Shown here: piece after piece, positions 778 through 57,260 of the stretch | Numbering within the stretch: position 1 is the first letter of the stretch | Layout of the letters: every line of letters starts with the position of its first letter | Source: Eledone cirrhosa | Taxonomy: Eukaryota | Direction: 5' to 3' | Assembly (NCBI GenBank): GCA_964016885.1 | Contig: OZ024743.1 | Coordinates: forward strand, 292,826,001 to 292,890,000 | DNA length: 64,000 nt | Program-made: the position numbers and the translations under genes | The notes under the pieces: model-generated | What the model saw: only the letters and a program-made list of their open reading frames with translations | What the model was told of the DNA's origin: nothing | Databases searched by the model: none

Positions 778-1510
778 ATCATAAAACATGTCTATAGAAT
801 CACTAGATCAAATATATACCGTTTCCTCTCCCAATTAGCATAATTAACCATATAAAAAAAAACAATTAGACCAAGCTATAAGAATAAAGGCTCCTATGAA
901 GAAATCTCCGACAAATATCCGAAAGCAGCCCCTTCGCGGCGGTTACGACGGAGTATTTATCGAACATTTCGACAGCATGTATAAATCGACCAGATATACA
1001 GTCAACTAAACACAATTAGGTGTACTAAACTTAGAAGAAATGTGTACATATTTAATTACCTCTACCATGGTTTCGTCCGTATTTTAAGACATCCGATAAC
1101 AGGGGATATCTAGAGCTTCGGATTCATCAGGAATTAGCTCAAATTTAGACAATTAATTTTCCAAAGTGATCGCGCCAAGAATACATTCAAAAATGGCTAA
1201 GAATCGTGATGTGGCAGCGGTCAAGTTAGAAAGGATGTGATTAGTTGCTTACGGCTGGTAGGGTTATTGTTAATTGTGTTTAGTTGGCTGTATATCTGGT
1301 CGATTTATACATGCTGTCGACATGTTCGATAAATACTCCGTCGTAACCGCCGTGCAGGGGCTGCTTTCGGTTATTTGTCGGAGATTTCTTCATAGGAGCC
1401 TTTATTCTTATAGCTTGTTCTAATTGATTTTTTTATATCGTTAATTATGCTAATTGGGAGAGGAAACGGTATATATTTTATCTAGTGATTCTATAGGCAT
1501 GTTTTATGAT
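778..1510. mobile_element. Fold-back module (arms ~778-1018 and 1271-1510) ending in (TA)n, HHR in the spacer
   Basis: Arms are reverse complements with several mismatches; right arm runs into (TA)n. Confidence 0.75.
1060..1133 (-). ncRNA. Hammerhead ribozyme-like motif, enlarged stem II
   Basis: Minus strand: ttc CTGATGA atccg...cggac GAAAC catg GTA gag; stem III palindrome ACCATGGT. Confidence 0.65.
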
Positions 1511-1630
1511 ATATATATATATATATATACATACATATATATATATATATATATATATATATATATATATATATATATATATATATATATATATATATAT
1601 ATATATATATATATATATATATATATATAT

Positions 1631-1755
1631 TGCATACACAATAATAAAATATAAACAAACGTATTTATTTCACGAGGCTCGATAAGGATAAATATATATC
1701 AAATATATAAGAACCTTTGAGCAAATCGCGAGCAACGCCGGGCCATTCTGCTAGT
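1631..1755 (+). mobile_element. Helitron-like 3' end
   Basis: GC-rich gcgagcaacgccgggcc followed by CTAG|T (1751-1755). Related sequence is reversed at 2421-2540. Confidence 0.55.
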
Positions 1756-1816
1756 GCTATACTAATATGTATAAATATATCTTTTGAACAAATTTTCGAA
1801 TTTAGATACAGACTAC

Positions 1817-1890
1817 AAGTCGGCGAATTGGCAGAGTTCAATTCCTGCCGAGGATAAAGTTTCCTTTGAGTCGATAAATAAAGTACCTGT
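1817..1890 (+). mobile_element. tRNA-derived SINE fragment
   Basis: ggcgaattggcag, B-box-like gagttcaattcc and gtcgataaataaagtacc core shared with other copies in the window. Confidence 0.55.
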
Positions 1891-2160
1891 ACAAGTATTA
1901 TTTTCCTTATATTTTTCGTTATCAGTGTATGTTTTATATAATATTTTTACGTAGATCACTGAACCCTTCTTTTGACAAGGGGATATTGAATATTTCCAAG
2001 GTAACATTTCAAAATATTTATTATCATCATTTTAAACATTTAATGTCCCATTTGCATTGGTGTAGTCACCTACATCAGTGTTTACTACATTTCCACAATA
2101 ATTCAAGCAAAATACAACCCCATTAAATATGTGTTCAATATATATATATATATATATATA

Positions 2161-53355: not shown

Positions 53356-53591
53356 CTGATGACCAGTGTAGCAGTAAATAGTGACCAGAATTTATGATGA
53401 CGTAGAAAAACAACAGCCAATGGCATGACAAGAGTGGAACATGTTTTTTGAAGGTGTCTTTTTATGAAAACACCCCAGTGAGAACATTTGCCCCGAAAGA
53501 ATTGCATGTGTCCGAAGAACCTGCAGCCGTAGAATCAGCCAGATCCATAGAGTGATCATGTCTCGAGCTACCTGCTGGCGAAACAATTGTA
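53356..53591 (+). ncRNA. Candidate HHR with ~200-nt stem II insertion
   Basis: CTGATGA ccag t gtagc ... gctac ctg ctgg c GAAAC aatt GTA, then AATAAA and the conserved tail; stem I not obvious. Confidence 0.45.
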
Positions 53592-53828
53592 ACACGCAAT
53601 AAACTGAGTCCAGATGCATCACTGATTTGTCGTTTTTTTATACTATTCACACTCTGCTCTGTAAGAATATTGAGTGCTAATTTTGGCATACCGCTTATGG
53701 AAGCACCATAGCTACCATTAAACACACGTATATATATATATATATATATATATATATATATATATATATATATATATATATTAGTGAAAAAGAACAAAGG
53801 AACTATTATGACATTATAACAAGTTTAT

Positions 53829-53875
53829 TGCCGACAGCCGTTTCGTCCGACCCCATGGTGGGACTTATCAAGGCA
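53829..53875 (-). ncRNA. Minimal HHR, U3-A8 variant
   Basis: tgcc TTGATAA GTCC..GGAC GAAAC ggct GTC ggca ataaa. Confidence 0.8.
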
Positions 53876-56800
53876 TATAACATGTGATTGCAAGATCATT
53901 GTTTACATCAACGTATCACTCAAGGCTAGCAGTTTGAAATTGTTGTATACATCAGCAACTCCGCTTTAAGGGGGACTCTTTTATATTAGTTGTCGGGGTC
54001 AGGGATTGAAGTTTACAAAATAGACAAAAATATATAATTTACGCATCAACATTAAACCAAAAGACTTGGGGTCCCGCAGAAGCACCTCAGAAAATCCCTC
54101 AATGAGTGCATAAAGCTTACAGGCTCCAATAAACCTATTAGTCTAGAAGAAAATTAAGAGGCTAATAAAATAAGAAAATAAAAATATAAAGTTTCCCTAA
54201 AAAATATATAAAGTTCCTATGAAATTTCTTCTAGAGAAAAAAAAAATTTTTTCCGAAAGAAAAAAACCTTCTTCCCCCGAGATCACGTTTACAAAATTCA
54301 GAAAACTGAATTGAAAACTAGGTTGAAAGAAACTAATCAATTAGAGGTTAATTCAGAGAGCCTTCCATAAATCTCTCAGAAAAGGCCCCTTTAATATTTC
54401 CAATAGGGACGTCTTCCGTGAGACCCTTCGAAGAATTAAAATTTTAGAGAGCCTTTAATGATAAATATAAAAACGAATTGAGGAAAATTATAGATTAAAA
54501 GTTAAAAATTAAAAATTACGGTATTTGGGATATCCGAGGAATTTTCAAAGGGCTGCTTCAACAGATACAACCTAGGCATAATAGATACAATAATCTAAGC
54601 AACTTAAGTAATTTAATTAGGGAGCAATTCAAGGAGTTTATCAAGTTGGGCAAGATTAAAGAAAGTGGTAACTAAGAAAATACATAAGCAAAAAGACAAT
54701 AATCATAAAATGTATCCTTAAGAAGGTATAAGGTAGCTTCAGTGATCTAACCCTGTATTATCACAAAAAAAACATTCTAAAATTATTGATACAGGATTAA
54801 AAATTATTACAAAATTATTACAAAATTACCACAGAATCATTATCAAATCATCACAAAATTACCACAAAATCATTACAAAATTATCAAATTATCATAAAAT
54901 TATCGCAAAATTATTACAAAATTATCATAAAATTATTACGAAAATATAACAGGATGAAAAGTACTGGTGACCGTGTGGGCGCGATATCCATTCTGCCTAT
55001 GCAGTCCCCTGCATAGCTCCAGGCACGATATCCACTAGGCGTAAGCAGTCATCTGCATAGCTCCAGGCGCAGCTGGTCTTGTTTAAACGTTCATAGATCA
55101 CCTGGGGTTCACTATTATCTGCGTGGACTCTCTGGGAGATGTACCTGTGGATCTAATAGCCAGTGGTTGCCGGATGTGGTCCGTTCGATCCTTTAGTTTC
55201 AGGGGTTGAACGCTTTCGCGATAGACGAGCCTGCCGGTTCTAAGTCCAAAGTTTCGCCACGCATGATGTATTGGTCTACATGCTATATTGTTAAAAAACC
55301 AGTGTGGATTTGACTGGGGTGGTATATTATGAACTCCAAGTCCACACGCGACTGGTCAAAAGCGAAGGGCTGTTCTCTCTTTGTTTGCTGCTCTGCGTAT
55401 ACGCATAGAGCTTAACTAGCTACCGTCACATATTTGGTAAGTCAGACGTGATCATCGCGATTCACATACGACCTACCATACATCTTACTTATATATATAT
55501 ATATATATAAGTAATATAATATATGAGTGTGTGTTTTAGTGTGCGTTCCTCTGTGTGTTTTATTGTGTGTACATGCCTGTGTGTGTGTTCGTGTTTATTC
55601 CTTTCTATTTATTTTTAATTATTCAGCGTGTGTAATTTTTCTGATTATAATTTCCATCATATTATTCTGGTTGGTTTCCCCTATATCATACACACACACA
55701 CACACACACACACACACACACACACACATATATATATATATATATATATATATATATATATATATATATATATATATATATATATATATTTAGGTTTGAA
55801 GGTTCACCACTGGATAGAGCTGGTCATTCTGTATGGTCAATCTTCTATGACGGCGTTTTATTTATTTTCTTATGTATTTTTTCATTTATTTATTTATATA
55901 TTTCTACCTTTTCACTTTATTAATGTGTTTTTATCTTCGTATTCTGCTTTTATTTATCTATGTATTCTTGGTTTTTGCCTACTGTTCCTTTTATTTAGGT
56001 TTTTACTCGCTTTACTCTCATTAAGTACTGATCATTGTACACGACACTAGAATATCTCCCCCTGAGAACCACAATACTTATAACCTGGACTATCTGGGGA
56101 CCTAGATATAGTCTATTTGCGCTTTTAATCAGGTTTTATAATTGATTACACGCGATGATCCGACTGTTGTGGTGGTTTTGCTGGCTGCGCGCCCGGCGCC
56201 CTGGTGCATAAACCTCCCTTAAGTGCTTGGAAAAACAAATTTTCCCTTCTTTCGGTAAATGAAATTATTCGGATCGGTTGGCTTCGCTCCGGGGCCCGCC
56301 GCAGCGCCGTTTTTGACCGCCATATAGTACCTTTAAATTCTAGGCCTAATAATAACTATTAGCTGTATCATGCCTCCCTCTCCTGACACTTAAACAAATC
56401 CCCCTCCTGTGTAAATTAATAGTACTCGTTTGGTATAACGATGGTTTAACGACGATGGCTGACTTCCCACTAGCACACCCGAAGCCTAGAACAGTTACAT
56501 TCCTCGAGTGCTCGGAGAAATTGATTTCCATATCTTTCGCTAGACGGTTTCACTCGGAATGGCTGACACATGAATAGGATGGGCTGGCCGGAGTCTGCAG
56601 TCGTCGCGTGCTGTTTGACTGCTAAACAAAGACTTAATCTTTACTCTATATCCCACCCTGACAACTTATCGAGGATCTCTATAATACACTTAACATTTTT
56701 TCATAAAAGACTCTCTATGTAAATTCTTTAACTAAATCTCGCAACATAAATAATTTTTTAACTGTTTAATTTTTAATTTTCAAATTTTTTTTAATTTTAT

Positions 56801-57202
56801 AATTTTAATCTTTAATTTAATTTTTTTAATTTCATCCTATAAATCTAAACAAAAATTTAACGTTCCAATTTTCTGTTCACACATTATACCATGCAGACGC
56901 CCACTATATATATACCTCTGTTATAATATATACCTCTGGTAAGATATAGGTTCTTTAGAATAACATTTTTCGCGGCAATTCCTAGCCTGATTGTAGCATG
57001 ACATTAACGCTGACTTTTCTTCTTTCTTTCTCTCTCTTTTTTTTTCTCTTTCGCCCCCTCACCAGATAGCCTTAAGTAGACCGAATAGCCAGCACTTGAG
57101 GGCGACCGGCTAAAGTGAAAGATGCTAGATGTCGGTCGTCCTCGGGTCTATGATTTTCAGCCCCATCGATTTTATCTGTTACATGCATTTATTATATTTC
57201 GA

Positions 57203-57260
57203 ATACCTGATGATATCACCGGATTCATACGGGCACCGGTCATTGAAATGATCATAGTAT
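57203..57260 (+). ncRNA. HHR motif
   Basis: atac CTGATGA t atcaccgg..ccggtcat t GAAAT gatc ATA gtat AATAAA; ATGATCAT palindrome; (TA)n ~60 bp downstream. Confidence 0.75.

Follow-up and report, generated by a model that had tools for sequence, protein, structure and literature searches.

Penelope-like elements (PLEs) with hammerhead ribozymes (HHRs) and non-coding retrozymes are both known classes of repeats. PLEs have been proposed to mobilize retrozymes on the basis of co-occurrence and sequence kinship (PMC7229834; PMC7761336; 10.64898/2026.07.22.740005); by the account in PMC7761336, no motif points to the mobilizing element. For the tandem arrays of retrozymes, both rolling-circle copying and later expansion at the DNA level have been suggested. 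PLE insertions are described with inverted copies, tails, and (TA)n targets (PMC8557442). In vitro experiments with a purified PLE protein have shown cutting and extension of both strands of the target, with two internal start sites that delimit the 30-40-bp tail found in genomic copies; HHR cleavage is reported to be unnecessary for this reaction, unprocessed RNA being the main substrate (PMC11167929). Here, we analyzed a stretch of 64,000 nucleotides from Eledone cirrhosa (assembly GCA_964016885.1, contig OZ024743.1, positions 292,826,001 to 292,890,000 of the forward strand), referred to as the window, with positions counted from its first letter. Its TA-targeted insertions with HHR motifs are best explained, with good probability, as truncated 3' ends of coding PLEs together with non-coding retrozymes that likely use a PLE enzyme on circular templates.

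Hammerhead motifs in the window

The window is AT-rich animal DNA with ~85 (TA)≥6 tracts in an assembly of 3.0 Gb. It was scanned with four type I HHR descriptors of rising breadth that included stem tests, the broadest of which permitted a long stem II and U4 variants; dinucleotide shuffles in 200-nt blocks served as background. The four descriptors gave 4 (strict), 13, 15, and 17 (broadest) matches, compared with shuffle means of 0.2, 0.2, 0.18, and 0.02 (maxima of 2, 2, 1, and 1, respectively). The control cores CGGANGA, GUGANCA, CUAANGA, CUGGNGA, CUGCNGA, and CUGANGG had no match in the window or in the genome sample described below. In the single family tested for covariation, a sequence-only alignment of 11 sequences had 95.9% of cells paired, a score attained by none of 500 shuffles, and 4 of 11 pairs showed two-sided (compensatory) changes; the kinship of the 11 sequences inflates this control. 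Thus, the excess over dinucleotide-shuffled sequence, a check named in a first-pass annotation of the window, was found, and the covarying stems claimed there hold in the family tested. The hammerhead motifs of the window are confirmed as sequence motifs of putative self-cleaving ribozymes. With Rfam, the window gave no hammerhead match at E ≤ 1, and eight loci gave nothing at the gathering score.

Back-to-back arrays of a 310-nt unit

As the TA tracts had swamped plain repeat finding, repeats were identified by a masked self-BLAST, which revealed that many modules between TA tracts are inverted or tandem repeats. Eight DNA and two pattern searches of the species' own genome showed the module families to be dispersed (the 1,229-3,785 first-look candidates from seven of the DNA searches should not be taken as copy numbers). 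Four lineages consist of tandemly repeated, non-coding units that are 310, 439, 522, and 659 nt long and each carry a single CUGANGA type I HHR. Their longest Met-initiated open reading frames (ORFs) measure 30-47 aa, and circular folding gave z values of -4.4, -6.1, -3.2, and -2.0, respectively.

The 310-nt unit occupies 39011-40093 in a minus arm (39011-39538) and a plus arm (39539-40093). It carries HHRs at 39180-, 39490-, 39587+, and 39897+ (the sign giving the strand), with predicted cleavage after 39617 and 39927 on the plus strand, a U.U at the base of helix II, and a palindromic helix III; the short end of the array lies left and the long (tail) end right. A 37-nt core of the unit occurred 4,541 times as an exact match genome-wide (control, 0), and the arrays, of which the genome holds roughly 450, were 99-100% identical across chromosomes. 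The 439-nt unit at 18930-19850 has a minus arm with HHRs 19096- and 19535- and a short plus arm (19633-19850). Inverted arms were also present in the 522-526-nt unit at 42334-43701 (HHRs 42620- and 43518+, and a decayed one at ~43120-) and in the 659-nt unit at 668-1509 (HHR 1130-, predicted cleavage at 1063). In copies of the 522-nt family, helix I is 5 bp long and helix III is bulged; the window copies have a helix III mismatch.

The array anatomy was determined from 35 arrays of the 310-mer, comprising the 20 top matches to the window copy, the window's own array, the first 10 obtained by pattern search, and 4 more (the duplicate L275 was dropped). What is seen directly is a pair of back-to-back arms in a TA-rich target, with two fixed outer ends, one per arm, scattered inner junctions, and one haplotype per array. 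The order was minus arm then plus arm in 31 of 35 arrays and never the reverse, the remaining four having a single arm (one cut by a gap). One outer end lay ~129-139 nt and the other 165-172 nt past the cleavage site in all 30 scorable arrays (L033 was unscorable). Where the target was imperfect, duplications of ~10-14 bp were recognized by eye (L266, L268, L277, and L279). The inner arm ends were scattered, and 2 of 62 fell ≤10 nt from the cleavage site, where chance would place about 4; as they ignore this site, a template without a fixed 5' end there is indicated. Microhomology of ≥2 nt was found at 12 of 24 clean inner junctions versus 18% expected by chance, and 7 of 31 inner junctions contained inserted sequence. 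The inversion junction of the array at L271 holds a 280-bp foreign stretch.

Both arms of each array shared one haplotype including private variants, which extended array-wide, for example, a 2-nt deletion in 22 of 22 units of L270 and A20G in 9 of 9 units of L268; lone deviating units were seen in L039, L268, and L279. Among minor variants compared between arms over 22,225 paired positions, 1 was mirrored and 25 were unmirrored, which points to a template that is uniform from unit to unit.

Several further observations concern the 310-nt unit. Relatives with 66-77% identity, the same back-to-back layout, and a conserved end region were found at L042:9070-9840, L173, L105, L191, and L050, suggesting an older superfamily. 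The motif TATTCCA is common to the long ends of the 439-nt unit (position ~288) and the 310-nt unit (~165), which are otherwise unrelated, and is a possible recognition site of a common partner. Contigs from four of six listed sequencing runs were compared with the unit. Runs X4, X5, and X6, from three other organisms and studies, each contained one 340-nt contig (310 + 30, the length expected of a circular unitig) that was ~99% identical to the element at 39540-40090, with a depth of 10-26; contamination, diet, horizontal spread, tandem DNA, and circular RNA are indistinguishable as sources, and these contigs were not used as evidence. Run X1 covered the 310-nt element very deeply, with nearly all depth supporting A at 39893 (changing a helix I G.U to A-U) and C at 39956. 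Many arrays of the reference genome, unlike X1, carry G at the former site, a difference that hints at individual- or population-specific recent activity.

Coding Penelope-like elements and their relation to the tandem units

Four lineages of the window are 3' ends of coding PLEs, three of the Hydra type and one of the Neptune/Nematis type. Longer copies of the 20-kb, 23-kb, and 41-kb modules continue into a reverse transcriptase (RT) and an endonuclease with a CxCX5C linker, YIG, and CxLC..E. The Hydra motifs, i.e., CxCX5C before a C-terminal GIY-YIG and CxxC near a conserved E, were read in three sets of loci (L188/L284/L286, L126/L280/L282, and L297/L306/L307); by eye, CCHH is absent from these sequences, and the DKT motif is present in one family (L284). 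Judged by these motifs, the three families represent Hydra-type PLEs. Relatives are about 700 aa long, and Hydra-like protein matches were obtained in 10 of the 39 sampled genome stretches. An uninterrupted Hydra-type RT-endonuclease frame of 480 aa at L306:1597-3036 is a lead for a young coding copy. The element at 3-9 kb is assigned to the Neptune or Nematis type by its CX2-5CxxC linker and a GIY-YIG with internal cysteines, features that do not separate the two.

In the window, the first Hydra-type family is represented by two inverted insertions of its 3' end at 22626-25066 (cores 22781-, 23363+, 23681-, and 24994+, with the U4A sequence CAGAAGA; endonuclease fragment at 24688-24915), a short 3' end at 9184-9298 on the minus strand (core 9248-), and a decayed 3' end at 49489-49755 on the plus strand (core 49689+). 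The second is an inverted 3' end at 40162-41684 (cores 40406- and 41269+) with a U4C core (CCGATGA), a helix II region of ~95 nt, and an endonuclease end at 40703-40879; the third, at 19887-20380 on the minus strand, has an HHR with a U3-A8 core at 20069-. The Neptune/Nematis-type PLE at 2878-9094 (minus strand) is a broken partial tandem with two RT copies, the linker and GIY-YIG, and HHRs at 3065- and 7108- in its pseudo-long terminal repeats (pLTRs). A pLTR of this family with a short inverted tail lies at 49816-50311 (HHR 50011-), and related pLTR-type ends lie at 41980-42301 on the minus strand (HHR 42269-) and at 31150-31237 on the plus strand (HHR 31196+, 8 nt from (TA)n).

The anatomy of a PLE insertion, i.e., an inverted 5'-truncated copy with an optional tail at one end in a microsatellite target, was present, with tails of about 35 to 170 nt among families. 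The rule of one short and one long end was scored by eye in the other tandem units. In the 439 family, 14 two-arm loci yielded 10 clean and 2 probable cases and none against it; in the 659 family, 17 such loci yielded 12 clean and 2 probable cases and 1 against. The coding Hydra families followed the same rule in 10 of 10, 4 of 5, and 3 of 3 loci.

The first-pass annotation had read the modules as non-coding and as ends of PLEs and PLE-mobilized RNAs that share a TA-rich target. The second part is borne out for the four lineages that reach PLE coding sequence and for the four tandem units with PLE insertion anatomy, though not in its extension to most of the unique DNA (see below); the description as non-coding fits the tandem units and is incorrect for those lineages that represent truncated coding PLEs.

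Loss of the invariant U4 in some families

The invariant U4 of the hammerhead core is replaced by A in the family at 22.6-25 kb and by C in those at 40-41 kb and 53.5 kb, while the other lineages retain it. U4C was present in 25 of 25 aligned copies of one Hydra family. The U4A Hydra family had 14,501 exact matches to a 38-mer, and U4A also occurs in at least one unrelated motif (L080). CUGANGA is retained in all four tandem families, and U4 changes occur in two coding families. U4C has been reported from viroids as a weakened variant (PMC3088659), and U3-A8 cores and the helix II U.U have been published (PMC4209133; PMC7229834). No report of a U4A core was found in the literature searched; supplements outside this search may already describe U4 variants. 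Motifs with U4A or U4C deviate from the canonical core in a defining feature, and their activity may be weak or lost.

Possible origin of the arrays

We consider it very probable that the tandem units are mobilized in the manner of PLEs and hold, with moderate confidence, that the template is a circular monomer. The latter is suggested by multi-unit arms, by arm ends that show no preference for the cleavage site, by private variants shared across whole arrays, and by the scarcity of mirrored variants. In the proposed sequence of events, an array would be transcribed and neighboring hammerheads would cleave, probably as dimers via the palindromic helix III; this is suggested by a perfect palindrome in helix III of 19 of 35 sampled HHRs and by published accounts (PMC4209133; PMC7229834). 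The cleaved monomer would be ligated into a circle. A PLE RT-endonuclease, probably as a dimer, would make a staggered cut in (TA)n, and both target strands would prime synthesis on one and the same RNA, using its two internal start sites (in the 310-mer, located about 130 and 165 nt beyond the point of cleavage). Each RT would complete 1-20 turns of the circle before end-joining unites the resulting cDNAs head-to-head. With coding PLEs, two-strand priming on a linear transcript would give single inverted arms; an active ribozyme would then not be needed, which may explain the fixation of U4A and U4C in two of the families. The array anatomy looks like the reaction described in PMC11167929 carried out on both strands at once with one start site per strand. 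In its full form, this model takes the arrays as a genomic record left directly by rolling-circle reverse transcription with twin priming, in which one PLE dimer copies one ribozyme-made circle, with up to ~20 turns and one fixed site per target strand; in this form, it is about as likely to be right as wrong.

A number of points weigh against it. Transcription, cleavage, and circles of the units are predicted from genomic sequence. Of the 35 arrays, 20 were picked for their likeness to the window copy. In the 522 family, the end rule was clean in only 5 of 11 two-arm loci by eye, with 1 against and 5 atypical, including the window copy; L203, in the second of the coding Hydra families, and L112 are further exceptions. 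The test with mirrored variants is weaker should assembly errors or later mutations account for most singletons; L278 does hold one mirrored variant, and variants at L271 are common to a few units of one arm. The HHR fold of the 310-mer monomer was calculated at +1.3 kcal/mol versus -5.4 kcal/mol for a competing fold, and one of nine Xenopus retrozyme dimers tested is reported to have cleaved (10.64898/2026.07.22.740005). An autonomous partner of the 310-mer, sought among the fetched loci, was not found beyond diverged non-coding relatives, the nearest hint being a similar helix II sequence adjoining a Hydra-type fragment in L036.

The strongest competitor, although we regard it as unlikely, is that the PLE machinery primes both strands on a linear template, namely, a long multi-unit transcript from a master array of great uniformity; the ribozyme would be a passenger, and no circle would be needed. 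It accounts equally well for the end rule, target duplications, and shared haplotypes, and would agree with the dispensability of HHR cleavage and the preference for unprocessed RNA in vitro (PMC11167929), with the mirrored variant of L278, and with the weak monomer fold. However, inherited copying errors on such a transcript should give a mirrored:unmirrored ratio of at least 1:2, whereas 1:25 was observed (p about 4e-4), and CUGANGA is kept in all four tandem families while U4 changed in two coding ones. Moreover, arrays fixed as a whole for private variants require a single-unit template at some step.

That a single PLE-type insertion was later expanded at the DNA level by unequal crossover, slippage, or fold-back, comparable to the satellite-birth model of 10.64898/2026.07.22.740005, is very improbable. 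Variants common to several units of one arm (L271 and L270) indicate that some later DNA-level turnover is possible, and the inner junction of the window array is a perfect fold-back at a hairpin. Against this, both arms are multimeric, the 99-100% identity of units across chromosomes leaves little time for such expansion, and fold-back of one arm cannot produce arms that start at unrelated unit positions and end at two different fixed sites.

L1 twin priming is known, and ORFs of long interspersed nuclear elements (LINEs) lie in the window at 32.7-35.4 kb and about 62.4-63.4 kb, so that mobilization by a non-PLE retrotransposon (RTE or another LINE) was also considered. We give it still less credence, because neither end has a poly(A) or 3' repeat tail, internal priming at two fixed sites is called unique to PLEs in PMC11167929, and the same anatomy occurs in coding Hydra elements. 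Finally, chance matches in AT-rich, hairpin-rich DNA, to which one failed and three borderline sites among those listed in the first-pass annotation might be ascribed, are already refuted as a general explanation by the excess over shuffles, the empty control cores, covariation, and the fixed position of the motif relative to element ends.

Genome-wide density and TA context

The genome was sampled at evenly spaced round coordinates, which gave 39 of 40 requested stretches of 10 kb (390 kb in total). With the broadest descriptor, 35 motifs were found compared with 0-1 in six shuffles. The resulting density of 9 per 100 kb, or about one hammerhead every 11 kb, corresponds to about 2.7e5 per genome when extrapolated from the 390 kb (bootstrap 1.6-3.9e5). 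At 27 per 100 kb, the window is about three times denser than the sample and is thus a locally enriched part of a phenomenon seen across the genome. An abundant HHR superfamily that is absent from the window accounts for about a third of the sample motifs. It has TATTTTAT ahead of the core, a 7-bp helix I, and a TA-rich helix III; its elements end ~48 and ~139 nt from the cleavage site (L060, L062, L065, L066, L070, L071, L079, and L087).

In the sample, (TA)≥5 was located ≤200 nt downstream of 26 of 35 motifs, compared with 6 of 35 upstream and 18.5% of random positions downstream, so that the claimed location of the motifs upstream of (TA)n was reproduced. The claimed association with AATAAA showed no strand enrichment, with 8 sense and 7 antisense cases among 19 window lineages and 20 sense and 12 antisense cases among the 35 sample motifs. 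Nor do PLE ends and ribozyme RNAs make up most of the unique DNA: inter-TA segments holding an HHR amount to at most 47% of the non-simple window DNA, an upper bound because some of these segments consist mostly of other sequence, and LINEs and unassigned DNA make up the rest.

An RTE-like LINE occupies 32677-35415 on the plus strand; its two long open frames measure 500 and 411 aa (RVT_1, E 6e-19), and no hammerhead was found in it. Fragments of another LINE RT lie at 62434-63350 on the minus strand. Inverted or perfectly palindromic TA-bounded modules in which no core was detected are located at 20618-21131, 43820-43960, 50738-50969, 48725-49332, 366-2137, and 44606-45452. In the first of these, two segments (20618-20800 and 20819-21131) correspond to ends of HHR-bearing families and resemble copies that were truncated within the ribozyme.

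Survey of individual cores and further lineages

The 25 sites listed in the first-pass annotation were inspected individually; 21 hold up, three are borderline, and one fails. Fifteen passed a descriptor directly in the window copy (the type I features sought being CUGANGA and GAAA boxes, an NUH site, and three helices), with C3 at 1130-, 19096-, 19535-, 20069-, 22257+, 31196+, 38812+, 39180-, 39490-, 39587+, 39897+, 42269-, 50011-, 53871-, and 57207+. Six are damaged or variant copies whose family fellows fold (3065-, 7108-, 40406-, 41269+, 42620-, and 43518+, the family of the last being judged by eye). The three borderline cases, 13278+, 36531-, and 37277+, have a poor helix I. The site at 53356 has no helix II and was ruled out, the true motif of that module being 53512+. 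Nine cores had been overlooked, comprising 50458-, 53512+, the decayed third copy near 43120, and the six copies of the CAGAAGA family at 9248-, 22781-, 23363+, 23681-, 24994+, and 49689+ (decayed). An "extra helix" variant at 1130 was ruled out by family copies with a plain 5-bp helix II and a long loop, and a type III reading of 43518 was dropped in favor of a type I fold with a bulged helix III. The assertion of more than 10 families is upheld by about 16 lineages, but those of 3065/7108/50011, 31196, and 42269 are interrelated. The back-to-back arrays, the two-end rule, and the U4A and U4C cores did not figure among the earlier observations.

Among the remaining HHR-bearing lineages, a non-coding linear element of ~1.23 kb at 55789-57322 on the plus strand (HHR 57207+) has a shared 5' start and two 3' ends; in its family unit, neither an ORF of ≥150 aa nor a match to a PLE protein was found. 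An inverted element of ~470 nt at 36312-37494 has the borderline HHR-like U3-A8 cores 36531- and 37277+ and was not tandem in 15 loci. Within it, (CTTTTTT)n has expanded to about 50 copies at 36819-37177, where other copies have a short T-rich run.

For six further families, relatives were sought among the fetched loci. Dispersed families were found for an HHR with a long helix II region at 22100-22561 (plus strand; 22257+), one with a 7-bp helix I at 50330-50740 (minus strand; 50458-), one with a U4C core at 53470-53728 (plus strand; 53512+), and the borderline minimal core at 13150-13393 (plus strand; 13278+), which has a helix II and an ACGT palindrome and almost no helix I. An HHR with a U3-A8 core and a weak helix I at 38600-38995 (plus strand; 38812+) has one 99% copy in L039, and the U3-A8 core at 53781-53900 (minus strand; 53871-) had no relative among the loci compared, no genome-wide search having been made.

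Discussion

PLE hammerheads and retrozymes were known; what is new is the mechanistic evidence, drawn from the two-ended back-to-back anatomy, that links them. Hundreds of very young arrays bear the PLE insertion signature, with a strict rule of one short and one long end that is common to coding Hydra elements, and this shared anatomy ties retrozymes to PLE enzymes. It also constrains how PLE tails and inversions arise. The 310-nt unit offers a ready minimal template with predicted start sites, and the value of the finding lies in making an open mechanistic question directly testable. Copying of small circular RNAs by a Penelope enzyme, which we consider likely, would help settle how ribozyme repeats spread. 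If twin-primed rolling-circle copying is true, PLEs would be identified as the mobilizer of animal retrozymes, the tail and the inverted copy of a PLE would be the product of a single event, and ribozyme catalysis would have been kept by circular parasites and relaxed (U4A, U4C) in coding elements. The known range of genomic hammerheads is extended by the estimated ~270,000 motifs and by a U4A core with >14,000 copies; Rfam missed the motifs of the window and of the eight loci. In the literature searched, there was no account of inverted, two-ended retrozyme arrays or of such an HHR density, and term searches of PMC7229834 and 10.64898/2026.07.22.740005 gave no mention of inverted arrays or tails.

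Like the metazoan non-LTR retrozymes, the 310-, 439-, 522-, and 659-nt units are tandem and non-coding with one type I HHR each, and the U.U at the helix II base of the axolotl HHR_Amex2 (PMC7229834) matches the 310-nt unit. Of the four lengths, 310 and 439 nt are within the 150-450 bp quoted for metazoan retrozymes, and 522 and 659 nt exceed it (PMC7229834; PMC7761336; 10.64898/2026.07.22.740005). Unlike described metazoan retrozymes, the genomic arrays reported here lie back-to-back in TA targets and stop at two fixed internal sites.

With the minimal PLE hammerheads of PMC4209133, the motifs share the short palindromic helix III, an extra base after A9, U3-A8 covariation, and an occurrence as dispersed single motifs or opposite-strand pairs 100-700 bp apart in many families per genome; they differ in that many have long helix II regions (50-100 nt). 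Their density of about 9 per 100 kb (~270,000 per genome) compares with about 2,000-9,000 per genome in PMC4209133 and 126,247 in axolotl (PMC7229834), a rough comparison because descriptors differ between studies.

The Hydra-clade PLEs described in PMC8557442 share with those of E. cirrhosa the C-terminal GIY-YIG, the CxCX5C linker, CxxC before a conserved E, DKT (one family here), a short ORF, the HHR in the pLTR, and the (TA)n target. They are presented there as a small set of families with canonical HHRs; in E. cirrhosa, they are very abundant, and U4A or U4C is fixed in two families. Finally, the PAc Poseidon PLE (PMC11167929) has in common with the present insertions the cutting and extension of two strands, two internal RT starts downstream of the HHR with the tail between them, and an AT-rich target. 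In that in vitro reaction, the two strands were not seen to differ in start site; in E. cirrhosa, each insertion used, almost without exception, one site per strand.

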